Assembly (NCBI GenBank): GCA_009786535.1
Contig: WQRX01000018.1
Location: 8,513 to 72,512 of the forward strand
Direction of reading: 5' to 3'
DNA: 64,000 bases
Origin: Defluviitaleaceae bacterium
Lineage (GTDB): Bacteria; Bacillota; Clostridia; Lachnospirales; WQUN01
The notes under the pieces were generated by a model that made no database searches, was not told the origin of the DNA, and worked only from the letters and a program-made list of their open reading frames with translations. The translations under genes were made by a program, and so were the position numbers. Shown here in pieces: positions 1-34,364 of this stretch (position 1 is its first letter; each line of letters starts with the position of its first letter).

Positions 1-1047
1 TGCGGGGTTTTCCGCGTCCCATGTGTCACGCGTGCCAACAGGACCTGTGCGCAGGGCAAATTCCCACGGTGCATAAATATGCAAAGAAACGACAATCCTG
101 TCATCTACCGTATCGGTGGGGATAACCAGTGCCCGCTGCGCTACCGCAGCAGAAGACGCCGCATACGTAGGCACCATTAATACGCGGTAGGCGTTATTGC
201 CCCCGTTTGCGCGTACAATGTCAACAAAAAGCTGGTTGAGGATATTTAAATTTGCGCGTTCCTCGGCTGTGCCGCCCGTCCACTCGGCGGGCGAGCCGAT
301 TGTACGCGGTTCGTTTAGCCCTTCGAACATGAGCATTTCATTATAATCACGGAAATGGTAGGCGATTTGCTTCCAAACCATAATAAACGACGCTTTGCTG
401 TAGTGCATAAATTCGTCACGCAGGTCAAAAATATATTCGTCATGGTGGGTATTGAGTATCACTTTTAAACCCGCGTCCAGCGACCAGTCCACAATTTCCT
501 GCACGCGTGCCATCCAATCCTCGCGGATATGCATTTCGTTTTGCAGCGCCTTAAACCACGTCACGGGAATGCGGATGGTGTTAAACCCTGCGTCGGCAAC
601 GGCTTGAATATTCTCGCGCGTGGTAATGTGGTTTACCCACGCGTATTCCATTTCCGCCACCGTAGTGTTGGCGTATAAACCGCCGCCAAGCCAATCAAAG
701 CCGTTTAACCCACCGTGCGAATCGAGGGTATTGCCCAAATTCCAGCCCATGCCGATATTCGCCACCCACCGGGTTGCGGTAATTTCGTTAAAATCGGCGG
801 TGCGCACGCCTTGGGTCATGGTAGCGGCGATAAGCGGGGGAAGAGGCGGCACATCATATTCGGGCGCGGTTTCTGTATCCCCTGTAATTACAGGGCGCGG
901 AGTAGGCCGAGGGGTCGGCGCAGGCATATACACAGGCGCATTTGGCGGCACAATAGGAATGGGCTGGTGCGATTCGGAACGCCCGACACAAGCCGTAAGC
1001 GTAAAAATTAACACAATAAATATAGCTGCAAATCCTAATTTTTTCAT
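1..1047 (-). CDS. Glycoside hydrolase family 5 (cellulase/mannanase-type) lipoprotein; C-terminus cut by the window edge
   Basis: Absent from the ORF track because it runs off the window. Minus-strand ATG at 1047-1045, with SD AAGGAGG (rc of 1054-1060). My translation: MKKLGFAAIFIVLIFTLTAC (lipobox LTAC), a Pro-rich linker PTPRPTPRP, then GH5 signatures WNLGNTLD, ILNTHHDE and MFEGLNEP (acid/base Glu). The frame stays open to nt 1. Confidence 0.85.
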   Translation of the reverse strand, partial: MKKLGFAAIFIVLIFTLTACVGRSESHQPIPIVPPNAPVYMPAPTPRPTPRPVITGDTETAPEYDVPPLPPLIAATMTQGVRTADFNEITATRWVANIGMGWNLGNTLDSHGGLNGFDWLGGGLYANTTVAEMEYAWVNHITTRENIQAVADAGFNTIRIPVTWFKALQNEMHIREDWMARVQEIVDWSLDAGLKVILNTHHDEYIFDLRDEFMHYSKASFIMVWKQIAYHFRDYNEMLMFEGLNEPRTIGSPAEWTGGTAEERANLNILNQLFVDIVRANGGNNAYRVLMVPTYAASSAAVAQRALVIPTDTVDDRIVVSLHIYAPWEFALRTGPVGTRDTWDAENPA

Positions 1048-3275
1048 TCGGTGCCTCCTTTAAATATACCCGGGGTGCTGCGCCTGCGCCCTTTTTTCTT
1101 CATTTTTTCTTCGTACAGGGCGGCGTCGGCGCTTTGTATTGCCGCTTCAAAGCATTCGCGGGTGGTTTCCTCCAACGCTACGTGACCAATACTGCATTCC
1201 ACACGGTAGGGCAAGCGGGTACGCGTATTATAGTCGTCTATCCCTGCCCGCAAACGCGCTACTAAGCTGTCCGCCATATATTTTTCCTTTACGGTAGAGA
1301 ATACGATAAATTCATCGCCCCCTACGCGGCCTATTATATCCTCCTTACGTAGGGTACTGCGCAGTATTTTGGCGAATATTTGAATGGCGCGGTCACCTTC
1401 CTTATGCCCCAGCGTATCGTTTATATCCTTTAGCCCATCCATATCCAAAAATAATACAACGGGGTACATATCACCATTGCGGCGCACTACGTCCATACGC
1501 GCGGAAACAAATTGGAAGAAGCCCCTGCGGTTATACAGCCCCGTTAGCTCATCGGTAATGGACAGCGACTGTATCTTTGTTATCAGTTCCGCACCCTTAA
1601 TTGCGGTGGAAATATTAACCCTTAACGCTTCATATATATCCACTTCCTGCGTAATAGACGGGTCATAGGGCAGTATAATTACGCCCGATTCCTCATCTTT
1701 AAAAAACAACGGGAAGTAGAAAAGTGTACGCCGTTCGCGATTAAAATCAAATTCCACAATGGAAGAAACATCGGTATAGTTAAACTTACCGCTTTCTTTT
1801 TTGGTATAGAAACGGCTTTTTCCGTCGAAGCCAAGCAAAATTTCCACATCACGCCTTGCGCTGGAGTCGTTACTTTTAACGGGGGAGTGGTATAAGCCTA
1901 CAATTGCCATGTTAATGCGCACTTCGGGTAACAGGCGGCACAATTCATCTGCCAGCGTATTTACGTCAAAGGTAGGCACAAGCGTACTGGTTACGCGCCG
2001 TAATGCCATGCGCAGGTCGCTTTGCCTATTTTCGCGTATTTTATCTTGGTTAGATGAAATATCATGCACCACGGTAGATGCATGAAGCAACGCCTCTAAC
2101 GCCGCATGTATATTGCCCACCTCGTGGGCAAAGCGCTGTAAACTCACCATAAATACGTTAATTACTTCCTGCCAAATAAAATAATCGGTGGCGAGATGGC
2201 TGTAATTTAAAATAATCTCTTCGAATAACGAAAGGAAAACCTCGCTTTGAAAGGAAGGCGTAGTCACTTGGTCGGCTAACATCGTAACCCACCTGTGTGC
2301 AAGGGTTGGGGGTATTTCATCATGGAAAAGGGGGACGAGTTTATCCAGCACAAACTGGGTAAATGCGTATGCATTACCCTGCTGATGGTTTTCCATATTA
2401 ATAAATTCGCGCCTAAAGCACCCGCAGGACTGCCGCGGAATAAATACCGAAGGCACGTAGCGCACTGCATCAACCTCTTGACCGTTTATTTTGGCAAACA
2501 ATGTTTCCGCACTTGCGTAGCCCATGGCAAAAAAGTCTTGCCCTGCGGTACTTACGGAGGGGATAAAGGTCGCCGCTTCGCGGTCGTCATCAAAGCCTGT
2601 AACCGAAATTTCGTTAGGCACTTGAATGCCGCGCGCCTTAAACTCCGTAAGCACGGTAATTGCCATAATATCGTTGCTTGCCACTACCGCGTCGAAGGGC
2701 AGCTTGCGCACATCCAGCAATTCGCGCACCGCTTTTTGGGCGCTGTCGTTGCTAAAATCGCCCGGAAGCACATAGTCCGCAACAAAAGGAAGCCCATTTT
2801 CCGCCAACGCTTTTTTATAGCCCTTTAGGCGGTCTTCCGCTTCGCTATTGCCTACCGGACCGCGGATAAATACGATTTTTTTCTTATTATGTACTTTAAT
2901 TAAATGGTCAACCGAGCTGTAAATGCCGTTTTCATTATCTGCAACAATAGAAGGAATGCCCTGCGCTACATACGACAATGAAACACAGGCAATATGCCTG
3001 GGTATTTTGCGAATATACGCATCGTACACATCGTTCCCGCCGATGTGGTGCGGGATATAACCCGAAAATAATATAACGCCGTCCAGTTTTTTACTGTTGT
3101 AAATCGAATCGAAACACGTGTTTAAATGCGAGGTAAAATCATCGTTACTGCTTTGGTAGCAACCAATATACCCAAGCAAATGAATGTCGCGCTGTGCCGC
3201 ATACTCGTTAATACCGCGCCACATTTCCATTTGGGGGAATGTAACCACATTCGAAAACAGTACACCAAAAGTCAT
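1044..3275 (-). CDS. Diguanylate cyclase (GGDEF) with an N-terminal LacI/RbsB-type sugar-binding (PBP type 1-like) sensor domain
   Basis: ORF track 1044..3290. The ATG at 3275 (MTFGVLF) has GAGGG 8 nt upstream and is the likelier start. The C-terminus has an RKED I-site 5 residues before an intact GGDEF (RVGGDEFIVF). The N-terminal ~290 aa look like a LacI-family effector domain without an HTH. No signal peptide or TM segment. The stop TGA 1046-1044 overlaps the GH5 ATG (ATGA). Confidence 0.85.
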   Translation of the reverse strand: MTFGVLFSNVVTFPQMEMWRGINEYAAQRDIHLLGYIGCYQSSNDDFTSHLNTCFDSIYNSKKLDGVILFSGYIPHHIGGNDVYDAYIRKIPRHIACVSLSYVAQGIPSIVADNENGIYSSVDHLIKVHNKKKIVFIRGPVGNSEAEDRLKGYKKALAENGLPFVADYVLPGDFSNDSAQKAVRELLDVRKLPFDAVVASNDIMAITVLTEFKARGIQVPNEISVTGFDDDREAATFIPSVSTAGQDFFAMGYASAETLFAKINGQEVDAVRYVPSVFIPRQSCGCFRREFINMENHQQGNAYAFTQFVLDKLVPLFHDEIPPTLAHRWVTMLADQVTTPSFQSEVFLSLFEEIILNYSHLATDYFIWQEVINVFMVSLQRFAHEVGNIHAALEALLHASTVVHDISSNQDKIRENRQSDLRMALRRVTSTLVPTFDVNTLADELCRLLPEVRINMAIVGLYHSPVKSNDSSARRDVEILLGFDGKSRFYTKKESGKFNYTDVSSIVEFDFNRERRTLFYFPLFFKDEESGVIILPYDPSITQEVDIYEALRVNISTAIKGAELITKIQSLSITDELTGLYNRRGFFQFVSARMDVVRRNGDMYPVVLFLDMDGLKDINDTLGHKEGDRAIQIFAKILRSTLRKEDIIGRVGGDEFIVFSTVKEKYMADSLVARLRAGIDDYNTRTRLPYRVECSIGHVALEETTRECFEAAIQSADAALYEEKMKKKGRRRSTPGIFKGGTE

Positions 3276-3428
3276 GGGCGCGTCCCTCATTTCCGCTTAC
3301 TATAACGCTACGTATAATACTGTATTTTTGTACAATAACGCAACTGTTTTGTGTATGAGGATGAGGTTGCAATAAGACGGAAGAACGCGTGGGCTTTTTT
3401 ACGCCCGCCGCCGCAATAAAAGCACGCG

Positions 3429-4799
3429 CTACCGCAGTAGTGCCAATACCCGTTCTTGTGCTTGGTGGCTTTGTGCCAGCATAGCCATGGCTGCTTGGTT
3501 TAGTACATTTGATGCGGTAAGGCGCATCATTTCCAGCGCCATGTCGGCATCGCGAATGCGGGAGTTGGCGTTTTTCATATTCTCTGAAGCGGTTTGCAGG
3601 TTTTGATGGATATAGTCCAGGCGGTTCATGTGTGCGCCCACAATTACACGGTAACTGTTAATTTGGTTTAGCGCATTGTCGATAGCAAGCAGTGCCGCGT
3701 TGCCCCCGTCCCATGTGGTTACATCTAACCCCACCACGCCCAAAGCAGCAGCGCGGGCATCGAAAACGGGAAGGTTTAACCCCTGCCCAAAGTTTGCCCC
3801 CGATTGTATCCATAGGTCGGGAATGTGGGGCGGGCGGATTGTGTCCGGGTCTACATTGGGGTCGGGTTGGGATGCAATTAAAAAATAAAATTCTCTAACC
3901 GGCGAATCAATATAACTACTAAGCATAATCGTCCAATTACCTGAAACTGTTGTGTCGGTAATTATCATATGCACACTACCTGCAACATTATTATTATTTA
4001 CCGCCCCGGTTACAATCGACTCCACGGTTCCGCTGGGCGTATTAAAAGTGCCATGACTTCCTGCATTACCGGAATGCAAACCGATGATTGTACCATCCGG
4101 CGAAACAAGCGACACTTGTCCTGTAAAAACACCAATATTTTCATAATTTGAACCCGCGATCACAAATATTGCCCCGCGCGTACCCTGTGGTATGTACCAA
4201 GAAGCAAAGTTAGTATGACTTACGCCAGGATTCATACGGACTGTAAGTGTAGTACCAAAATAACCCGCTTCCCCTGCCCCAGGCAAACCTGTTGCATTTA
4301 CAATATTAACCCCCGGTCCAAAAACAAGGGGATTTGAAGGTGATGCACCGCCGCCCCCACCCCCGCCTAACCACGATGCGCCTGGGCGGTTTAATAAATC
4401 TACTGTATTAAATTGCGTCCGATTTGCGGAAGCCGTAATTTCTGTAATTAATTCATTCACTTCTCTTTGAATTTGCCGTTTATCTTCATCGGTATTCGTG
4501 TCGTTTAATGCTTGAATTGTAAGTTCTCGTTTGCGGATTAACATATCGCCGATAACGCTTAGCCCGCCGTCCATGGTTTGCAACAGTGAAAAACCGTCAC
4601 GCGTGTTTCTGTCGGCTTGGTCCAGCCCACGGATTTGCGCGCGCAGTTTTTCGGATATAGCTAACCCCGCCGCATCATCTGCGGCGGAGTTAATCCGATA
4701 CCCACTGGACAAACGCGTGGAAGCACGGCGTTGTTTAAGCCCAACATTTTTTAAATTTCGCCAGGCAGTTAAGCCCAGTTGGTTGGTTTGGATGGTCAT
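3429..4799 (-). CDS. fliC: Flagellin
   Basis: 456 aa. N-domain: LSSGYRINSAADDAAGLAISEKLRAQIRGLDQA. C-domain: NRLDYIHQNLQTASENMKNANSRIRDADMALEMMRLTASNVLNQAAMAMLAQSHQ...LLR. The ~210-aa variable middle opens with a GGGGGGG linker. There is no purine-rich SD in the 15 nt before the ATG. The start lies 9 nt after the stop of the upstream gene. Confidence 0.9.
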   Translation of the reverse strand: MTIQTNQLGLTAWRNLKNVGLKQRRASTRLSSGYRINSAADDAAGLAISEKLRAQIRGLDQADRNTRDGFSLLQTMDGGLSVIGDMLIRKRELTIQALNDTNTDEDKRQIQREVNELITEITASANRTQFNTVDLLNRPGASWLGGGGGGGASPSNPLVFGPGVNIVNATGLPGAGEAGYFGTTLTVRMNPGVSHTNFASWYIPQGTRGAIFVIAGSNYENIGVFTGQVSLVSPDGTIIGLHSGNAGSHGTFNTPSGTVESIVTGAVNNNNVAGSVHMIITDTTVSGNWTIMLSSYIDSPVREFYFLIASQPDPNVDPDTIRPPHIPDLWIQSGANFGQGLNLPVFDARAAALGVVGLDVTTWDGGNAALLAIDNALNQINSYRVIVGAHMNRLDYIHQNLQTASENMKNANSRIRDADMALEMMRLTASNVLNQAAMAMLAQSHQAQERVLALLR

Positions 4800-4808
4800 T
4801 GTTCTAAA

Positions 4809-7226
4809 TTAAACCATTCGGAACATCATTGAGGAAGTCGATTCATTACTAAAGTTGAATTGTAAACTTCCCGTGCTACCAACTAATTGCGTTTCAAAAA
4901 CATGTAACAATTGCCCCGGAGCAGTAATGCGGAATATTCTGTACTCTGCTGATGCATTTGCAGGCTGGAGCAAGCCAATCATATCAAATGCGCCGCTATG
5001 AACTGTAAAAGTGGTTGCATAAATATTAATTCCTAACCTTGCAATATCCGCGCTACATACACCAATATCAACATGGCTTACTAACCCGAAGAAAAAATCC
5101 ATTGGTGCAAAGTCCATAAAATACGTTAATAACCGTGGCGCTTCGGGAGTTGCATCATAAATGCTAATACTTACAATAATCGTATGCCCGCTGGTAAAAT
5201 TAACCCTAAACGGAAATGTTCCTGCGGGAAGCAAATCTAAAAATTCGCTTCTAAACATTATCGTTTCGCCAATTACGATATAATCTTGCGGGTTTCGCAA
5301 GCCGGGAATATCACGTACCGTTGCACCGCCAAAGGTGTTAAACTCAACAACGAGGTTTTCACCGCTATTGCGCACATGATGCCAGTAACGCGAGCCGCAC
5401 AATTCGGGTTCAATATTCCCTGCAAAGTCGATGCTTTCTTGGAAACGTACATACTCTGCACTATTTCGCTTGCGCAGTAACGGCAATTCACCATTTCTTA
5501 TCACGTCAACATTAAACGCGTTGCCGATAAGCAACGTAGATGTCCACCACGTTGGTAATGTAATTGCCTGTTGGTGTACCCGTACAGCTTGGCTAAAATC
5601 ACCAATCGCTCCACCGTGTATCCTGCTTGCAAAGCTATAAAAATTGTTTGAGGGAGAAAGCTGTGTGCCATTACCAACTATTGATACCGCCGCTGCAGCA
5701 GAAGGCGCAATAATATCGGCGATGATGAAATTATTGGTAATTGCAGCGTTAATTGTGCCGCGACCGCTCAAACGGCTTACGTCGCCAATCAATCCACCCG
5801 CAAAATTATTTGTTACGGTAATATTAACGCTTACATAATTTCGGTGAACATTTACCGTAGTCCAACGAATTGATGAAGAACCAGGAATGCTATAACGGAA
5901 ATGCAACTGCCCGGCTAACCCACCGGCACGTGTATTCGCGTATACCGTAGCATGGGAATAGTTGTTTGTAATGTCAAACACCAAACCATTTGCACCCGAA
6001 TCGAATAAACCAATTAGCCCGCCTACGCTATCATTACCACGGATTACACCCGTCGCATAGGAATTAGTAAGGGTAGAACCAGACGCCGTAGAATGAATAT
6101 GCCCTACAATACCGCCTACATTGTTATTGCCTGTAACATTTGCCCTGCCGAAACTGTTAAAAACATGGAACAAACCCGATGCGCGCCCAACTACGCCGCC
6201 TATGGCATTAGTTCCGCGTACTGTCGCATCATTTGTTAAACCGCTGTCGGAGATAGTAGTTGCCTCCATTAAGCCTGCAATACCGCCAACATTATTTCTG
6301 CCTTGTACATCAACATTAACGGTAGCGGTTGTAATGCGACCGCTTGTAATCTGTCCCGCAACGCCGCCAACATTATCAATACCTAGAATGCTGCTACCTG
6401 TTACGGTAATATCATTAAACGGAGTATTGGTTGCAATACCTACAACGCCGCCTACATTGTGGGCTTGACGCGCATTTATGCTTCCGCCTTCAATGTTTAT
6501 GTTTGATACCCTCGAATTAACAGCGGTACCAATCAGGAAGCCAATGTTATCCCTGCTATGACCTGTTACAACTACTTCAGGGTTTACCAAATTTACATTG
6601 TGGATATCGGCATTGTGGATGAAGCCAAACATACCAAGGCTGTTTATGCTTGCATTCAAGGGAATAAGCACCCAGTCAAAATTAATTAGCAAATTGTAAA
6701 TCGTAAACTCGTTACCGTTAAAACTCCCATTAAACGCATTGTGTTGTTGAAACCCAATGGGAAGGAAGTTAAAATAATTTGCCATGTCAATATCCGCCAC
6801 CAGCACATAGTAGGCGCGGTTAAAAAAGTCGATGGATAAGTAGGGATGCGCTTCCATACCCGATGTAAATTCACTAAAAGCCATAAGGTCTGCGCTGTTT
6901 GCTATCATGAAAGGAATGTTTACACCGTCACCACCGCTAAACAGTTGAGCAGATACGGGCGTTATGGCTGCGTAGACAACTTCAATTGCCTCATACGCAT
7001 CGCATTCGTATCCTTCTTCGTATTCCTCTCCAACTTCGTACTCGTCTTCAGTTTCAACTTCAAGTTCCGGGAAGTATTCATCCGGGGTGTATACTTCGTA
7101 TTCGGGATAATTGTAGATCTCATCGTCCCCGTAATACGCTGCACGCACAACCATTGCGTTGCCCAGCGCCATAACCAACGCCAGTAAAATTACTGCTACT
7201 TGCTTTGTCCATTTCCTTTTGTACAT
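4809..7226 (-). CDS. Secreted GLUG-motif repeat protein (adhesin/exoprotein-like)
   Basis: ORF track 4809..7286. The ATG at 7226 has AAGGAGG 7 nt upstream and gives the signal peptide MYKRKWTKQVAVILLALVMALGNAMVVRA. Next comes an acidic Glu/Tyr-rich stretch, then about 9 repeats with the core N-x-GG-[IVL]-[VAI]-G (NVGGVVG, DNVGGVAG, NNVGGIAG, NAIGGVVG, NNVGGIVG, DSVGGLIG, RAGGLAG, FAGGLIG). The C-terminal ~250 aa look beta-rich. No LPXTG motif. Confidence 0.8.
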   Translation of the reverse strand: MYKRKWTKQVAVILLALVMALGNAMVVRAAYYGDDEIYNYPEYEVYTPDEYFPELEVETEDEYEVGEEYEEGYECDAYEAIEVVYAAITPVSAQLFSGGDGVNIPFMIANSADLMAFSEFTSGMEAHPYLSIDFFNRAYYVLVADIDMANYFNFLPIGFQQHNAFNGSFNGNEFTIYNLLINFDWVLIPLNASINSLGMFGFIHNADIHNVNLVNPEVVVTGHSRDNIGFLIGTAVNSRVSNINIEGGSINARQAHNVGGVVGIATNTPFNDITVTGSSILGIDNVGGVAGQITSGRITTATVNVDVQGRNNVGGIAGLMEATTISDSGLTNDATVRGTNAIGGVVGRASGLFHVFNSFGRANVTGNNNVGGIVGHIHSTASGSTLTNSYATGVIRGNDSVGGLIGLFDSGANGLVFDITNNYSHATVYANTRAGGLAGQLHFRYSIPGSSSIRWTTVNVHRNYVSVNITVTNNFAGGLIGDVSRLSGRGTINAAITNNFIIADIIAPSAAAAVSIVGNGTQLSPSNNFYSFASRIHGGAIGDFSQAVRVHQQAITLPTWWTSTLLIGNAFNVDVIRNGELPLLRKRNSAEYVRFQESIDFAGNIEPELCGSRYWHHVRNSGENLVVEFNTFGGATVRDIPGLRNPQDYIVIGETIMFRSEFLDLLPAGTFPFRVNFTSGHTIIVSISIYDATPEAPRLLTYFMDFAPMDFFFGLVSHVDIGVCSADIARLGINIYATTFTVHSGAFDMIGLLQPANASAEYRIFRITAPGQLLHVFETQLVGSTGSLQFNFSNESTSSMMFRMV

Positions 7227-7240
7227 CTTGTTTCCTCCTT

Positions 7241-7262
7241 GGGATAAAATTGGGATAAAATT
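7241..7262. repeat. Perfect tandem duplication of the 11-mer GGGATAAAATT
   Basis: Read directly: gggataaaatt (7241-7251) and gggataaaatt (7252-7262). It lies immediately upstream (minus-strand sense) of the SD of the GLUG gene. Confidence 0.9.
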
Positions 7263-7302
7263 TGACATGTCGGGCACATCATACACTCATTCAAAATAAA
7301 AA

Positions 7303-7354
7303 GTGTGGAGAAACTTGCACACATTCTTAAAATAATGTGCAAATTTCTCCACAC
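7303..7354 (-). terminator. Long imperfect inverted repeat (~21-nt arms) followed by TTTTTATTTT on the minus strand; terminator or attenuator-like
   Basis: Left arm GTGTGGAGAAACTTGCACACATT; the right arm rc is GTGTGGAGAAATTTGCACATT. On the minus strand the stem is followed by tttttatttt (rc of 7293-7302). On the plus strand only CTTTATT follows. Confidence 0.5.
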
Positions 7355-7359
7355 TTTAT

Positions 7360-7401
7360 TGCGGGATATTCTGTATACTTGCCGCAACAAAATATCCCGC
7401 A
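7360..7401. repeat. 11-bp inverted repeat TGCGGGATATT / AATATCCCGCA with a 20-nt loop
   Basis: Read directly. It sits between the long hairpin and the peptide gene. No T-tract follows on either strand. Confidence 0.7.
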
Positions 7402-7442
7402 TTCACAAATGTCGGGCATACAAATGCTAAGGAGGCTATGAC

Positions 7443-7616
7443 ATGAAAAAAATGTTATTAGCAGTTATGGTTGGTCTAGGTGTTTTACTTACAGGTGTTT
7501 TGTTCGCGGTAACGACGCAAGCGTATGAACCCCCAGCAAATTACTGCATTGAGATTGCAATGCCCGACGCACGTGTTTTACCCAAGTATCCCTCAATCCC
7601 ACCCACTCGGGGATAG
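7443..7616 (+). CDS. Unannotated 57-aa secreted pre-peptide (candidate signalling pro-peptide)
   Basis: Below the 60-aa cutoff of the ORF track. SD AAGGAGG (7429-7435) lies 7 nt before the ATG at 7443. Translation: MKKMLLAVMVGLGVLLTGVLFAVTTQA|YEPPANYCIEIAMPDARVLPKYPSIPPTRG, followed by a stop codon. It has a classic Sec signal peptide with an AxA-like site (TQA) and a Pro-rich 30-aa tail. The stop at 7614-7616 is 4 nt from the stop of the convergent regulator gene. Confidence 0.6.
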   Translation: MKKMLLAVMVGLGVLLTGVLFAVTTQAYEPPANYCIEIAMPDARVLPKYPSIPPTRG

Positions 7617-7620
7617 CATG

Positions 7621-8523
7621 TTACAAAACAATATTAAAATTATCTGCAACAAAATTGCGGATTATCTCTTTATACCTATACATTTTATACATTTCAAACG
7701 AATAGTACACTTGCTTGAATAAGCTTAAACTCCCATCCCTATCACCAATATCGAATAAACAACATGCTTTATTCGATGTGATTTGCGGTAACATATACGT
7801 GTCATATGTTTTTATGCAGATATCAATTCCTTTATCACATAGAGGAATTGCTTCTGTTTGTCTATTCATATCCCGCAAGTAACTAGTGAGATTAAATACT
7901 AAAGTAGGATAGTGCCGACCTAGATAACGCGGGTCGGCACAATTGTTTTCAAAATTACGCATCAAAGCGAGCATAGTATTAACTGCATCATCTCGCTTAC
8001 TGCTTTCCCAACGGACAAGGGATAGCTGGTTTATTAATATTATGTCGTTGCTTGTTAATAGATATTCTTCAATTCGCTTTTCGTCAAAATTGGGAATACT
8101 CATTTTTAATGCCCGGTCAACCATTTTAATAATTTTTGCAGGCGATTCTTCATTAATAATCGCAATAGCAGCCTTTGAGCGCAAAATGTATTGACGGTTA
8201 ATCGTTTTATACATAAAATCATCGTTTGCTTCCAACTCTGCCACAAGCTGGGTAGCTGTAACCGTATTTCGTGCAGATAAGCTAGCTTCAACCTCATTCT
8301 TCCGTTGCCATTCATCGGTAGGCAGTATATCCGCACTATACCCCAACCGTTCAATCAACTGCACCAGCGTATCATACGAGCAGGAGATTTTCCCCGTTTC
8401 AATTTTGCTTAGTGAATCACGGCGTCCAATTATTCCGTCTGCCAATTCGCTTTGGGTTAGCCCCCGCTGCTTACGCGCCTTTTTAATAAACGTACCTACA
8501 TCCATGTTGCCGATTTTTACCAA
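7621..8523 (-). CDS. XRE-family HTH regulator with a C-terminal helical-repeat (TPR/Rgg-PlcR-like) domain
   Basis: 300 aa. N-terminus: FIKKARKQRGLTQSELADGI...SLSKIETGK (HTH_XRE). The remaining ~230 aa are helical-repeat-like (Leu/Tyr/Asn-rich). The size and architecture match PlcR/Rgg-type receptors. TTG start at 8523 with AAGGGGG 8 nt upstream. AT-rich gene. Confidence 0.75.
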   Translation of the reverse strand: MVKIGNMDVGTFIKKARKQRGLTQSELADGIIGRRDSLSKIETGKISCSYDTLVQLIERLGYSADILPTDEWQRKNEVEASLSARNTVTATQLVAELEANDDFMYKTINRQYILRSKAAIAIINEESPAKIIKMVDRALKMSIPNFDEKRIEEYLLTSNDIILINQLSLVRWESSKRDDAVNTMLALMRNFENNCADPRYLGRHYPTLVFNLTSYLRDMNRQTEAIPLCDKGIDICIKTYDTYMLPQITSNKACCLFDIGDRDGSLSLFKQVYYSFEMYKMYRYKEIIRNFVADNFNIVL

Positions 8524-8611
8524 TGCATTACCCCCTTTTCACCCTGCGCCCTTAGCCACAGGTTGGATAGGGGCATATGATAGCACAATTCCAATTTATA
8601 ATCATGGTAAT

Positions 8612-8652
8612 AAAAACAGGACTGTATCAGTCGCATAATACAGTCCTGTTTT
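8612..8652. terminator. Bidirectional rho-independent terminator (sipL-like gene / regulator boundary)
   Basis: AAAAACAGGACTGTAT (8612-8627) pairs with ATACAGTCCTGTTTT (8638-8652). There are T-runs after the stem on both strands. It is located 23 nt downstream of the stop at 8675. Confidence 0.7.
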
Positions 8653-8674
8653 GTTGTATTGGGAGTAACGCGTT

Positions 8675-10234
8675 CTACCCGCGCTTTAGCACCAGCAGGC
8701 GCTGCCCGCTATGCAGCTTTGTATTTGCTTCAATGTCATTTACGGCAAGCAATTCGTCCAGCGGGGTATTGTATTTCTTTGCAATTTTCCACAGGGTGTC
8801 ATTGGGCTTGGTTACGTACACGGTCATGGACGCCATGTGATTGGACGCTTCCGGGTCAAGGTCGGCGAAGGTGATATTGTTAATTATACGCGCCTCTTCT
8901 TCTTCGATAACCTGCGTATTGAAGGTGAGCATAAAACGCACCTCTGTTTCGCGGGGGGAAAGCATGTTGAAGGTGGCGTGGTCTATAGACGTATCCACAC
9001 TTACGCGCATGTGGGGCAGTGTGCCCTTTGCCTCAATTACCTGGCGGAAGGGTACGATGGTGCGGTAGCTGCCCAGCGGTTGCGCATCGCTTTCGGCAAC
9101 GTAAAGGATATCGGTGGTGATAGCGCCCTCTACCACTACTTTGTCCTCGAGGGTTTTTATCTCGTCAAGGTATGCCTGCCCACGCACGCGGAACACTTGC
9201 AGCATGTCGGGGGCATCCGTACCCAGTGTTACCATTTCCTTTACGGGTGTTTGGTTGCGGTTAAGGCAAATAAGGCGCGGCACACGAATGGTTGTTTTTT
9301 CCAACTGCAATTGCTTTTCGGTGCTGTAGGCGTCCTCTAAAATGGAAAGGGTATCGGTGGCGTACACCTTGGTTTGCACGCCCATGGTAAGGTCAAGCTC
9401 GATTACGCGGTCTTCCCCGTCGTCATTGGGGATAATGCGGGCTTGGTTTTCCAACACTTGCAGATGAACATCGCTAAACATATCCTCCCGCGCGGCGGAA
9501 ATGTCAATTGCGCCGTTAAAGGGAATGGTATTTTCAATAAATTCGATAACGCTTTCGTCCGTATCGCCGCGGTAAAGGGTGGTGATAAGCAGCTCGCCGG
9601 AGAGGGTAACCCGCCCGTTTGCAATGCGCTCGTCGCGGTTGGCAACCTGCGCCGTAGTAAGCAGAATTTCGCGCATATTGGGCTTGCCCGTGGCAAGGGC
9701 AATTTTTTCGTTAATCGTGAAGCGCTCGTGTTTATGCTCAATTGTACGGTTAATCACGAGGGGTGACTTTAACAACTGATTTTCGGGGATATCGGCGATA
9801 TGTATTGCCATTTCATGCGCATCGGATTTTTCCGCCTGCACGGTCACGTTTACAATAGCGCGGAAACTCACCTTTCGGTCGTTTAGCAAACGGTAATCGC
9901 AGTTGGTAATTTGCGCGGTTGCACGCACCCACATGTCCTTGTTTACGCCTTCAAGGTTAATAAAATCGTCCACATTATGGTCGTGGGTAAGCACATGCAC
10001 GGGTTTGTCGGCGGCTTTGGCTATGTAAAGCACGTTTAAGCTCAACCGCCCCATAAAGTTTACTCGGTCGGTCGAAATTTCGGTACGGTCGATGATGATG
10101 CGCTCTTCCGTTTGCAACAGCACCTGCATGTCGGGCTTTGCATCGGGTACGATAATTTCCCCCTCCAGCAACAATTGCTGCTGCTCTGTGCCTACGCTTT
10201 GGTCGAGAAAGACCTGCTCCTTCATAAATTCCAT
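8675..10234 (-). CDS. sipL: Sporulation protein with DUF3794-type repeats and a C-terminal LysM domain (SipL-like, SpoIVA partner)
   Basis: 519 aa. C-terminal LysM: YVTKPNDTLWKIAKKYNTPLDELLAVNDIEANTKLHSGQRLLVLK. The size and architecture match clostridial SipL. It is adjacent to veg. SD AAAGGAG lies upstream of ATG 10234. Confidence 0.6.
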   Translation of the reverse strand: MEFMKEQVFLDQSVGTEQQQLLLEGEIIVPDAKPDMQVLLQTEERIIIDRTEISTDRVNFMGRLSLNVLYIAKAADKPVHVLTHDHNVDDFINLEGVNKDMWVRATAQITNCDYRLLNDRKVSFRAIVNVTVQAEKSDAHEMAIHIADIPENQLLKSPLVINRTIEHKHERFTINEKIALATGKPNMREILLTTAQVANRDERIANGRVTLSGELLITTLYRGDTDESVIEFIENTIPFNGAIDISAAREDMFSDVHLQVLENQARIIPNDDGEDRVIELDLTMGVQTKVYATDTLSILEDAYSTEKQLQLEKTTIRVPRLICLNRNQTPVKEMVTLGTDAPDMLQVFRVRGQAYLDEIKTLEDKVVVEGAITTDILYVAESDAQPLGSYRTIVPFRQVIEAKGTLPHMRVSVDTSIDHATFNMLSPRETEVRFMLTFNTQVIEEEEARIINNITFADLDPEASNHMASMTVYVTKPNDTLWKIAKKYNTPLDELLAVNDIEANTKLHSGQRLLVLKRG

Positions 10235-29072: not shown

Positions 29073-30746
29073 ATGTTATTAAACTACGACCGTTATCTAG
29101 TATTTGAGGAGCTAACAAAAGCACTGCATGATTTGGCGGCGGCGTTTCCGCAACTGGCGCAGTTAAGGAGCATCGGCAAATCCGGCGAAGGGCGCGACCT
29201 GTGGTTAATGGAAATTACGGATACACGCACAGGCACGGCGGACAGTAAGCCCGCTTACTTAATTGACGGCAACCACCACGCAGGGGAGGTTACGGGCTCT
29301 ATGGTTGCGCTGTATACCATTGACGAGCTGCTAAGCCGCGCCGAAGAGCCTGAGTTTGGCGAGCTTCTTAAACGGTATACCTTTTATATTTTGCCCCGCC
29401 TTTCCCCCGACGGGGCAGAGGTATACCTTACCACGCCCAACATGTTACGTTCTGCGCCGCGCCCCTATCCCTTTACGGAAAAACTGGCGGGCTTAACCCC
29501 CGAGGACATTAACGGCGACGGGAAAATCCTCCTCATGCGCGTGGCTACGCCCTTGGGCAATTGGAAGGAAGACCCCGCAGACAGCCGCCGTATGCTCAAG
29601 CGCCTTCCCGACGAAGAAGGCGGTACGTACTATGCCATTTACCAGGAAGGGCTTATCCACGAATTTGACGGCCATACCTTCGAGCAAGCCCCCACCCATT
29701 GGGGGCTGGACTTTAACCGCAACTACCCCGAGGTGTGGGCATTGCACCACAAAATGCCCGGCGCGGGTAATTATCCCCTTTCCGAGCCGGAAACCCGCGC
29801 ATTGGCAAACTTTGTGATAAGCCACCCCAATATTGGCGGCGTTTCCACCTTGCACACCACGGGAGGCGTGATTATTCGCCCGCCAAGCATTAAACCCGAA
29901 AAGGACAGCGACAAAGGGGATATGCGCATTTTCAAGGAAATTGGCGCAATGGCAACAGAAGAAACGGGCTACCCCTGCGTACATTGCCGCGACGGTTTTT
30001 TCCTGGACCCCGAGCTAAACCCCCTAAGCGGCGCTTTTGACGACTGGCTGTATTCCCACATGGGCATACCGGGTTATACGGTGGAATTGTGGGACTTGCA
30101 CCTGCGCGCCGGGGTGCAAATGTGGCCGCGCAAGGCAAAGGAAAGCGGCGAAATCGCCGAGGACTACGCGAAGGTGTTGAAATGGATTGATACGGAAATG
30201 CAGGGCGAAGGCTTTACCCCATGGACGCCCTTTACCCACCCCCAACTGGGTGCGGTGGAAATCGGCGGCTTCGACATGAAGTTTTTACAGCAAAACTGTC
30301 CGCCCCGTTTTCTTAAACAGGAATGCGAGAAAAATGCCCGCTTCTTTTACCGCCATGCCCGTACGCTGCCCCGTCTGGTGCTGGATAAGCCCGAAATCAC
30401 CAAGCTGGACGAAAGCACCTGGAAAATCGGCATCGACGTGCTAAACCTTGGCTACCTTGCCACCTATCTTACACAAATGGCGCAATCCATAAAAATAACG
30501 CGCCCCGTTAAAATTACACTACAGGGCGCGGAAATATTGGACGGCAAAGCCGAGCGGGAGCTTCCCCAACTGGAAGGCCGCGCCGCAATACGGGAAGGCT
30601 ACGGCTTTGGCGCAGGCAACATCGTTCACCAAAAGAAACATGTGAGCTGGATTATACGCGCCAAAACAGGGGACACCATTACCCTCCACGCCACATCCCA
30701 AAAGGCAGGCAACCCGAGTTTGGAAGTTGTGCTAAAGAACGATTAA
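29073..30746 (+). CDS. M14-family zinc carboxypeptidase
   Basis: 557 aa. Zinc motif [11 protein letters not shown] (HxxE) and a later ...TLHTTGG... region typical of the M14 second His. No signal peptide. Confidence 0.75.
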
Positions 30747-33098: not shown

Positions 33099-34364
33099 TT
33101 ACCCCCGTATCTTCCGTGCCATAGTCATGGCTTTTTCTTCGTCTACGGTTTTTAATTCTTTGTTACGCATCAGGATTTTTCCGTTTACAATTACATCCCG
33201 TACGTCCCCCGCCTGTGCCGAATAAGCGATGGCGGCGGTTGGTTCGCCCAGTGGGCATAAATGGGGTTGGTTTGTGTCTACGAGGATAAGGTCCGCCTTT
33301 TTCCCCGCCTCCAGTTGCCCGCAATCGTTAAAGCCCAGCGCCTGCGCCCCTGTATGGGTCGCCATCGCCAGCACTTGAGATGCAGAAATACTTGTTGCAT
33401 CTTTGTTGACGCCCTTGTGCAAAATGGTGGCCAAATGCATTTCTTCGAACATATTTAGGTTATTGTTGCTGGCGCAACCGTCTGTGCCCAGCGCCACCTT
33501 TACCCCCGCTTGCAGCATTTTTTCGATGGGAGCAATGCCGTTGCCCAGCTTTAAATTGCTGGTGGGGTTATGAGCGACATATGCCTGCTTGCTTGCCAAC
33601 AGTTTTATGTCCTCGTCATTTAACTGTACGCAATGGGCAAGAAGGGTGGGCACGTCAAATACGCCGAGGTCTGCGCACATTTGGGGGGGCGTTTTGCCGT
33701 ATTTTTGGAAGGTGGTTTCCTCCTCAGCAAGGCTTTCGGACAAATGCATGTGAATGGGCAGCCCAAGGGACTTTGCCAGCGCCGCCGCCCCTTGTATTGC
33801 TTCCGTGTCATACAAGAAAAGAGAATGTATTTCCACGAAGGTTTTAATGCGCCCGTCGGAAGCGTTGTTCCATTGGGCGATAAAATCACGGCACCCCTGC
33901 TCGTTGATGATTTGCCCGCCCCCACGCGCCGCGGAAATAATCGGCCCATAGCACAGGTTAGCGCGGATGCCCGTCTCCGTAACGGCTTGGGCTACTTGCG
34001 GGTTATGGGCTTGTAAATACATATCCGCGAAGCAGGTCGTACCGCCACGAATCATTTCGGCTATGGCAAGCTGTGTACCCCAGTACACATCATCACCGGA
34101 CAGCTTATTTTCAAAGGGAATAACCCGCTCAAAGAGCCATTCCGAGAAGGCGCAGTCGTCGGCAAGGTTACGTTGCAGCGCCGTTGCCGCGTGGGTGTGG
34201 GCGTTTACCAAGCCGGGCATGGCAATGCAGTTTGTTGCGTCTATTATTTCATCGGGGGGAAAGTTGGCGGGAGCGCTCCCAATGAAGGAAATTGTGCCGT
34301 TTTCTATACCTATGTCCTGTACGCCATTGTTTAATGTTGTGGCATTTTTGATTAAGATTTTCAT
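33099..34364 (-). CDS. mtaD: 5-methylthioadenosine/S-adenosylhomocysteine deaminase (amidohydrolase)
   Basis: 421 aa. Metal motifs GLVNAHTHAA and HMHLSE, plus a ...GTDG... region. ATGA overlap with the mtnP stop. Confidence 0.8.
   Translation of the reverse strand: MKILIKNATTLNNGVQDIGIENGTISFIGSAPANFPPDEIIDATNCIAMPGLVNAHTHAATALQRNLADDCAFSEWLFERVIPFENKLSGDDVYWGTQLAIAEMIRGGTTCFADMYLQAHNPQVAQAVTETGIRANLCYGPIISAARGGGQIINEQGCRDFIAQWNNASDGRIKTFVEIHSLFLYDTEAIQGAAALAKSLGLPIHMHLSESLAEEETTFQKYGKTPPQMCADLGVFDVPTLLAHCVQLNDEDIKLLASKQAYVAHNPTSNLKLGNGIAPIEKMLQAGVKVALGTDGCASNNNLNMFEEMHLATILHKGVNKDATSISASQVLAMATHTGAQALGFNDCGQLEAGKKADLILVDTNQPHLCPLGEPTAAIAYSAQAGDVRDVIVNGKILMRNKELKTVDEEKAMTMARKIRG

Follow-up and report, generated by a model that had tools for sequence, protein, structure and literature searches.

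The locus and its regulator

The DNA analysed here, referred to below as the window, is a stretch of 64,000 nucleotides from a termite-gut Defluviitaleaceae bacterium (assembly GCA_009786535.1, contig WQRX01000018.1). It contains a candidate peptide-signalling cassette in which the gene for a 300-residue regulator and the gene for a 57-residue protein run towards each other on opposite strands; on its far side the small gene is separated by a large inverted repeat from an operon for a surface protein and a flagellin (Table 1). An earlier note, made from the letters of this DNA alone, had picked out both genes, a ribosome-binding site, a terminator-like hairpin and an AT-rich setting, and all of these sequence features are present where it had placed them. 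The GC content of the cassette is 39.2%, compared with a mean of 48.4% for the window, and falls within the lowest 0.3% of segments of the same size.

The regulator had been described in that note as an XRE-type helix-turn-helix (HTH) protein with a helical-repeat domain, of the size and architecture of the PlcR/Rgg peptide receptors, and the description stands. Searched against Pfam as a single sequence, the protein matches HTH_3 (E = 3.6e-10), followed by a helical C-terminal domain, and its TTG start is in register with the N-termini of its homologues in the alignment. A profile built from the regulator and nine relatives matches PlcR (2qfc) over the full length (E = 9.7e-14; profile residues 9-290 aligned to 2qfc residues 7-283). 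RNPP_C is precomputed in most family members, and Pfam matches to both RNPP_C and tetratricopeptide repeats (TPR) occur in the family. In a tblastn search, plasmid-encoded HTH proteins of the Bacillus cereus group, which we take to be PlcR paralogues, matched the regulator at ∼ 26% identity over 94-96% of its length.

The AlphaFold2 model of the regulator (predicted local distance difference test score 91.3, predicted template modelling score 0.88) consists of the HTH domain followed by paired helices. Its best Foldseek match in the PDB is PlcR in complex with PapR and DNA (3u3w, E = 2e-8); ComR, Rgg2/3, Lmo0325 and NrpR rank next, with Rap and PrgX lower down, and matches 1-21 are RRNPP receptors without exception. 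In the sequence profile the regulator lies closer to PlcR than to Rgg, and Rgg structures score worse in both the profile and the Foldseek searches. Identity to PlcR in the structure alignment is only ∼ 17%. By profile and by model, then, the regulator is a full-length PlcR homologue with an RRNPP-like C-terminal fold.

Word-indexed searches of proteins yielded few relatives; an exhaustive profile search returned a broad family of 4,296 representatives, 284 of them with E < 1e-30 and most of them ∼ 305 residues long. The members that we looked up come from metagenome-assembled genomes (MAGs) of termite-gut Defluviitaleaceae, Lachnospiraceae and ‘Firmicutes’, and are named only as ‘helix-turn-helix’ proteins. 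Many others (P0022, P0023 and P0032 among them) have ∼ 635 residues and are matched twice by the profile; in these, two receptor-like halves seem to be fused in tandem. Within the 64-kb window neither the regulator nor the peptide gene has a second copy.

A convergent gene for a small protein

The stop codons of the regulator gene and of the 57-residue open reading frame (ORF) are 4 nt apart, tail to tail, and the ATG of the ORF is preceded at a distance of 7 nt by the Shine-Dalgarno (SD) sequence AAGGAGG, as the earlier note had reported. The product begins with MKK, after which come a hydrophobic stretch, whose best 12 residues average 2.88 on the Kyte-Doolittle scale, and a TQA|Y site that obeys the −3/−1 rule; the remaining 30 residues hold seven prolines. 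The proposed signal peptide with a Pro-rich tail is thus supported by heuristics for the former and by the translation for the latter. The protein has no family match in Pfam or NCBIfam. It had also been called unannotated, but an identical 57-residue protein is present in NCBI MAG records as a ‘hypothetical protein’, so it is overlooked rather than unannotated.

A conserved small ORF with a variable C-terminus had been predicted to accompany regulator homologues, and a convergent ORF of like format stands beside the regulator in 11 of the 13 relatives that could be assessed. The 11 cassettes are the window itself (W), L001a, L001b, L004, L007, L009, L011/L018, L013, L019, L020 and L023; the L013 peptide ORF is partial, being cut by the contig end. 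Searches of genome and metagenome contigs for related loci added none to this set. The ORFs encode 52-64 residues and their stop codons lie between −53 and +10 nt from that of the regulator, while the regulators share 26-54% identity. All nine complete metagenome/MAG cassettes (W to L020) have the SD sequence, the MKK start and a hydrophobic stretch with a Kyte-Doolittle mean above 2.2, and all except one have a Pro-rich tail. The four closest peptides align with an invariant C..E..P..P..P..P pattern and differ at their extreme C-termini; the Cys is missing from the L009 and L011 peptides. Searches with phmmer and with an iterated hidden Markov model of the peptide recovered five cassette peptides, and no other sequence, among 671 small ORFs.

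We considered whether the ORF could be a chance frame in the 3′ untranslated region of the regulator gene, since it is short and lacks a family match. Its position, length, SD sequence, N-terminal format and part of its sequence are, however, conserved next to regulators of only 26-54% identity, which excludes this explanation; we see practically no chance that it is correct.

RRNPP_detector defines candidate pairs as a TPR receptor of 250-500 residues with an adjacent propeptide of 10-100 residues, secreted by the Sec/SPI or the SHP-type route (PMC10075063). The regulator (300 residues; relatives 295-314) lies within this receptor range, and a TPR-type peptide-binding domain is indicated by the family Pfam matches, the PlcR profile match and Foldseek. 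The size of the peptide and its direct adjacency to the receptor agree equally well. Secretion, with cleavage, is predicted by heuristics only, namely the MKK start, the Kyte-Doolittle mean of 2.9 and the TQA|Y site.

Several loci are worth describing individually. The Defluviitaleaceae MAG contig L001 carries two paralogous cassettes (2469-3561 and 6001-7082) 2.6 kb apart, with differing peptide tails and with a HEPN/nucleotidyltransferase pair downstream. L023, a human-faecal scaffold labelled ‘Bacteriophage sp.’ (GenBank MT837704.1, 1501-2618), encodes a 308-residue relative of 26% identity, whose gene is overlapped by 4 nt by a convergent ORF for a 64-residue signal-peptide protein; because of this scaffold, the layout reaches beyond termite guts. 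At L005 (930-1572) the C-terminus of P0004, a homologue of the regulator, is aberrant, and the expected position of the peptide gene is taken up by unrelated DNA; the cassette is therefore broken. The PlcR-like locus of Bacillus toyonensis (L022) has no convergent signal-peptide ORF.

Paired dyads between two predicted divergent promoters

The arms of the inverted repeat between the peptide gene and the surface-protein gene (7300-7321 and 7336-7357) are 95% complementary. On the regulator-sense strand they would fold into an RNA hairpin of −35.3 kcal/mol (z = −8.9), followed by the U-run UUUUUAUUUU. Each arm also contains a smaller dyad, TGTG-N10-CACA. There are four such sites in the 64-kb window against 1.1 expected, and two of the four lie in the central dyad; the remaining two lie elsewhere (29734-29751 and 34072-34089), a count that chance could produce. 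A further perfect TGTG-N10-CACA occurs within the P0004 coding region (L005, 243-260).

In W, L004, L007 and L001b, TGTG-N9/10-CACA is found exactly twice per locus and nowhere else there. The centres of the two sites are 32 bp apart in the first three and 42 bp apart in L001b, where the wider spacing comes with a 10-nt duplication or insertion, so that the helical phase is kept. L011 has a different dyad, CTTGCG-N5-CGCAAG, again twice and again 32 bp apart. Its more distant regulator, P0009, has the recognition helix ATSLAH in place of the R[TS]x[LI]SK found elsewhere, and the divergent helix thus accompanies a divergent dyad. A comparable dyad is located between peptide gene and cargo in seven of the nine cassettes, with a sequence that varies from cassette to cassette.

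Candidate promoters flank the dyad on both sides. Hexamers resembling a −10 box (at least 5/6 match; background 0.044 such hexamers per position) occur 44-45.5 nt either side of the dyad centre in six of the seven cassettes, and at 50/51 nt in L001b. A scan for −35 matches at either inferred promoter of the window, and for a canonical sigma-70 promoter, was negative. The −35 position is occupied instead by the promoter-proximal CACAC, which places the centre of each 18-bp site near −40, and since no −35 hexamer is recognizable both promoters are presumably weak without an activator. A dyad within each arm, the phased spacing of the two sites and −10-like hexamers in mirror image on either side together point to promoter/operator geometry.

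Transcription from the two inferred starts would begin beyond the dyad and proceed away from it on either side, so the hairpin RNA could only be made by read-through from the regulator gene. Regulator and cargo are co-directional and a terminator is therefore needed at this position. The hairpin had been proposed in the earlier note as the terminator of the regulator transcript. Its strength and its U-run are in keeping with this, but it is more than a distant terminator, since paired operator-like dyads lie within it between the predicted divergent promoters. The element probably combines both roles, acting as paired operators in DNA and as an insulating terminator in RNA.

The palindrome could instead be an intrinsic terminator and insulator of the regulator mRNA and nothing else, with the regulator binding elsewhere or other factors controlling the promoters. 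This would account for the strong hairpin with its U-run on the regulator-sense strand, for the U-run that follows the dyad or its first arm in six of the seven cassettes, for arms that stay complementary despite sequence differences between cassettes, and for the insulation that co-directional genes require. We nevertheless think it unlikely. A terminator has no use for arms that are each themselves a dyad (TGTG-N9/10-CACA or CTTGCG-N5-CGCAAG), and phasing at 32 or 42 bp combined with a fixed distance of 44-45.5 nt to the −10 boxes on both sides is the geometry of promoters. Moreover, L001a retains the motifs and their spacing with most of the pairing lost (−10.4 kcal/mol), L004 has no U-run, and the sequence of the dyad changes along with the recognition helix.

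As a terminator for the peptide gene, the regulator gene of the window contains only a weak candidate (7642-7662), which is not conserved in the other cassettes; the peptide transcript therefore probably continues antisense into the regulator gene. In an Rfam search of 7000-8800 the sole matches were to generic hairpins (miRNA precursors), with scores well under the threshold, and no known RNA family was found.

Three further repeats lie in the same intergenic region. The inferred −10 box and start site of the peptide promoter lie between the arms of a second inverted repeat (7360-7374 and 7387-7401; arms of 15 nt, 93% complementary). It sits in ∼ 30 extra nucleotides not present in the other cassettes, and may be a site for another regulator. 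Two tandem copies of TTGGGATAAAA occupy 7239-7260, immediately upstream of the surface-protein SD sequence and within the predicted 5′ leader of that mRNA, and the 10-nt direct repeat ATGTCGGGCA occurs at 7267-7276, the inferred start site of the target operon, and at 7409-7418, in the peptide leader.

Table 1. Positions in the window of the genes and sequence elements of the cassette and of its inferred target operon.
Feature	Position	Strand	Basis
Receptor/regulator gene; 300 residues, XRE-HTH and TPR-like PlcR homologue, TTG start	7621..8523	minus	ORF, Pfam, profile, AlphaFold2, Foldseek
Putative propeptide gene; 57 residues	7443..7616	plus	ORF and translation, conserved convergent counterparts, detectable homology
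Signal-peptide-like part, residues 1-27	7443-7523	plus	Heuristics
Pro-rich tail, residues 28-57, YEPPANYCIEIAMPDARVLPKYPSIPPTRG	7524-7613	plus	Translation
Shine-Dalgarno sequence AAGGAGG, 7 nt 5′ of peptide ATG	7429..7435	plus	Sequence
Central dyad (‘dyad of dyads’); arms of 22 nt around an AT-rich centre of 14 nt, midpoint 7328.5	7300..7357	.	Repeat search, RNA fold
Operator-like site TGTG-N10-CACA, target-operon side	7304..7321	.	Pattern search
Operator-like site TGTG-N10-CACA, peptide-gene side; centre 32 bp from 7304 site	7336..7353	.	Pattern search
Inferred −10 box TATACT, peptide-gene promoter; 45.5 nt from dyad centre, no −35 match	7374..7379	plus	
Inferred −10 box TATGAT, target-operon promoter; 45.5 nt from dyad centre, no −35 match	7278..7283	minus	
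Target-operon gene 1 (inferred); 805-residue secreted/surface protein	4809..7226	minus	Signal peptide; sub-threshold GLUG, CBM_X2
Target-operon gene 2 (inferred); flagellin	3429..4799	minus	Flagellin_N E 9.5e-34, Flagellin_C E 8.7e-19

The downstream operon and the cargo of related cassettes

The surface-protein gene has an AGGAGG SD sequence 7 nt upstream of its ATG at 7226. The flagellin gene starts 9 nt past the surface-protein stop codon and has no recognizable SD sequence; no sigma-28 promoter was found for it. A flagellin apparently co-transcribed with a surface protein under a predicted quorum-sensing promoter is unusual. That this operon is the target of the cassette, as the earlier note had supposed, is supported by the mirror-symmetric promoter region that it shares with the peptide gene. 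Beside the flagellin gene, and with a promoter-like sequence of its own, lies a gene (1044-3290) for a 748-residue protein with LacI-type periplasmic-binding-like sensor and GGDEF diguanylate cyclase domains, which suggests a possible link between motility and cyclic di-GMP.

The genes that follow the dyad differ between cassettes. L004 (1618-4184) and L007 (6216-7535) have a radical-SAM (S-adenosylmethionine) enzyme as cargo. In L004 it is accompanied by two small Cys-rich ORFs (50 and 70 residues) and a probable transporter fragment, so that by sequence this cargo resembles a cluster for a ribosomally synthesized and post-translationally modified peptide (RiPP), apparently under a like layout of dyad and promoters. 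The cargo of L011 is a 742-residue protein of unknown function, and those of L001, L019 and L020 are small secreted or Cys-rich proteins. These gene contents suggest that the cassette is a regulatory module that is portable and can stand ahead of varied cargo. Cargo modularity is typical of RRNPP systems.

Radical-SAM maturases next to two of the cassettes also raise the question of whether the small protein is a diffusible signal at all. It might be a membrane-anchored or secreted partner that, for instance, counteracts the regulator or assists the cargo as an accessory factor, or else a bacteriocin or RiPP precursor. The length of its tail (25-30 residues), the conserved Cys and Pro positions and the purely predicted nature of its cleavage would be compatible with such a role. 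On the other hand, the ORF accompanies the regulator whatever the cargo, a maturase is present in only two of nine cassettes, and both of these have Cys-rich precursor-like ORFs of their own. The Cys is, as noted, dispensed with in two peptides, and the format and adjacency of the ORF fit the RRNPP criteria (PMC10075063). The precursor reading was rejected on the conservation of the ORF across different cargo types, and we judge a non-signalling role as a whole to be distinctly unlikely.

Relation to known peptide-signalling systems

The closest known receptor by profile and fold is that of the PlcR/PapR system of the Bacillus cereus group, likewise a full-length HTH and TPR-like protein of ∼ 290-300 residues. 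As in that system, a small propeptide, here with a predicted Sec-type signal, is encoded directly beside the receptor, and the receptor is likely to act at a palindromic box upstream of targets that include the peptide gene. The gene orders differ: papR lies downstream of plcR and is co-directional with it in the Bacillales layout (PMC9765709), whereas in each of the 11 cassettes the peptide gene runs towards the receptor gene and, in the window, meets it tail to tail at 4 nt. The DNA sites and the peptides differ as well. The PlcR box, TATGNAN4TNCATA, is absent from the cassette, and its two one-mismatch matches in the window lie inside distant genes, two being expected. Two phased TGTG-N10-CACA dyads are found instead, and the peptide has a Pro-rich tail of ∼ 30 residues.

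The earlier note regarded the tail-to-tail arrangement as lying outside the known systems, which it took to be only co-directional or divergent. This is wrong, because in the Group III Rgg/SHP systems the shp gene is convergent with the 3′ end of rgg and overlaps it, an example being rgg1299 of Streptococcus thermophilus (PMC13361665). The cassettes share with these systems a convergent peptide gene that adjoins the receptor gene at its 3′ end or overlaps it there (−53 to +10 nt here), the overall receptor fold and the presence of adjacent cargo operons. Some SHP/Rgg systems are linked to radical-SAM RiPP (RaS-RiPP) clusters, the topic in the title of the review (PMC13361665). SHPs, which are short and hydrophobic, have no Sec signal peptide and are exported through PptAB (PMC10075063). 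In contrast, the precursors described here have 52-64 residues and a classical signal-like N-terminus, that of the window has a polar, Pro-rich tail, and the receptor is closer to PlcR.

Among Clostridia, the Qsr/Qsp pairs of Clostridium acetobutylicum provide a precedent for multiple RRNPP paralogues per genome and for signal-peptide precursors of 39-50 residues (PMC7376267). Qsr/Qsp and the present pairs have in common that they are clostridial RRNPP pairs in which a few positions of the C-terminal region, including a proline, are conserved (PMC7376267). The qsp genes are described as downstream of their regulators and not as convergent, unlike the peptide genes here (PMC7376267). A layout of mirror-image promoters around a dyad is not described for Qsr/Qsp.

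TprA/PhrA of Streptococcus pneumoniae is similar to the cassette in its opposite-strand peptide gene and its RiPP-cluster neighbour, and also in peptide secretion and autoinduction, both of which are predicted for the cassette. TprA is PlcR-like; it is, in distinction from the activator proposed here, a repressor that is relieved by its peptide. PhrA is a secreted Phr-type peptide encoded on the opposite strand beside a lantibiotic cluster; the peptide up-regulates the genes of that cluster, and its own gene is autoinduced (PMC5436883).

PrgX/PrgQ of pCF10 is related through its RRNPP receptor, which was among the Foldseek matches. Binding of PrgX to its two operator sites is cooperative, and its switch also involves antisense RNA from convergent transcription units that overlap. 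The transcripts of pCF10 overlap at their 5′ ends and its peptides are not of the Sec type; in the cassette the overlap would be at the 3′ ends.

Proposed mechanism

We consider it probable that the cassette is an RRNPP-type, PlcR-like peptide quorum-sensing system of a previously uncharacterized subfamily. The evidence consists of the homology and predicted fold of the receptor, the conservation of the peptide gene, and the conserved geometry of promoters and dyads; what we infer is that the peptide is secreted, processed, imported and bound, and that the promoters are activated and not de-repressed. The 57-residue product would be exported via Sec and cleaved, probably after TQA27, and its Pro-rich tail would be trimmed extracellularly to a short peptide. 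After re-import this peptide would be bound by the TPR-like domain of the regulator, which would occupy the phased dyads at 7304 and 7336, each centred ∼ 40 bp upstream of a promoter that lacks a −35 hexamer. Occupancy would turn on both promoters, giving positive feedback on the peptide gene and expression of the diverging surface-protein/flagellin operon. Transcribed as RNA, the dyad would serve as the only terminator insulating the cargo from regulator read-through.

A more speculative extension, to which we would give limited weight, is that the cassette is a compact switch in which one DNA element has two jobs and the tail-to-tail layout is itself functional. On the 58-bp dyad, acting as a pair of helically phased operators, the peptide-bound regulator would assemble into a tetramer (a dimer of dimers) and switch on both mirror-image promoters, and the RNA copy of the dyad would end regulator read-through ahead of the cargo operon. 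Once induced, transcription of the peptide gene would continue in antisense through the regulator gene and meet regulator transcription head-on. Such collisions could provide built-in negative feedback or bistability, as a 3′-end counterpart of the prgQ/prgX antisense circuit.

Several observations weigh against a PlcR-like quorum-sensing system. Matched to the regulator alone, RNPP_C is sub-threshold (19.9 versus 26.5 bits), and no oligopeptide permease was found among the window ORFs that were scanned. The convergent ORF is missing at the distant relatives L021 (23% identity) and L024 (26%), and the intergenic regions of L009 and L019 are short and have no long dyad. The 57-residue product may be a non-cleaved membrane anchor. 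The conserved positions of the peptide are in the middle of the tail, and 25-30 residues is long for an RRNPP pheromone. Finally, an operator centred near −40 suits a repressor as well as it suits an activator.

This last point bears directly on a variant with the same cassette and the opposite logic, in which the apo-regulator represses both promoters at the −35 region and the imported peptide releases it. Peptide-relieved repression is the mode of Rgg3, TprA and PrgX, and several RRNPP members behave alike. The dyad sites overlap the −35 position at both promoters, which is compatible with occlusion, and negative autoregulation of tprA2 has been suggested for TprA2 (PMC5436883). Set against this, the nearest relative in both structure and sequence, PlcR, is an activator, and neither promoter has a recognizable −35 hexamer. 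De-repression, the strongest of the rival readings, is consequently doubtful in our view, albeit worth keeping in mind, and we favour activation of both promoters by the peptide-bound regulator.

Implications

A PlcR-like cassette of this kind would extend PlcR-type peptide quorum sensing to uncultured termite-gut Clostridia (Defluviitaleaceae and Lachnospiraceae) and probably to human-gut relatives. Members of the wider regulator family number in the thousands, and the ones that were checked carry no annotation beyond ‘helix-turn-helix protein’. A convergent gene for a Sec-type propeptide, paired and phased dyads and mirror-image promoters together make up a genomic signature by which further systems may be found, and the orientation rules used in RRNPP annotation should admit convergent pairs besides co-directional and divergent ones. 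As a portable module, the cassette could help in finding natural products whose synthesis is controlled by cell density, and in recognizing social control of motility or adhesion in gut symbionts.

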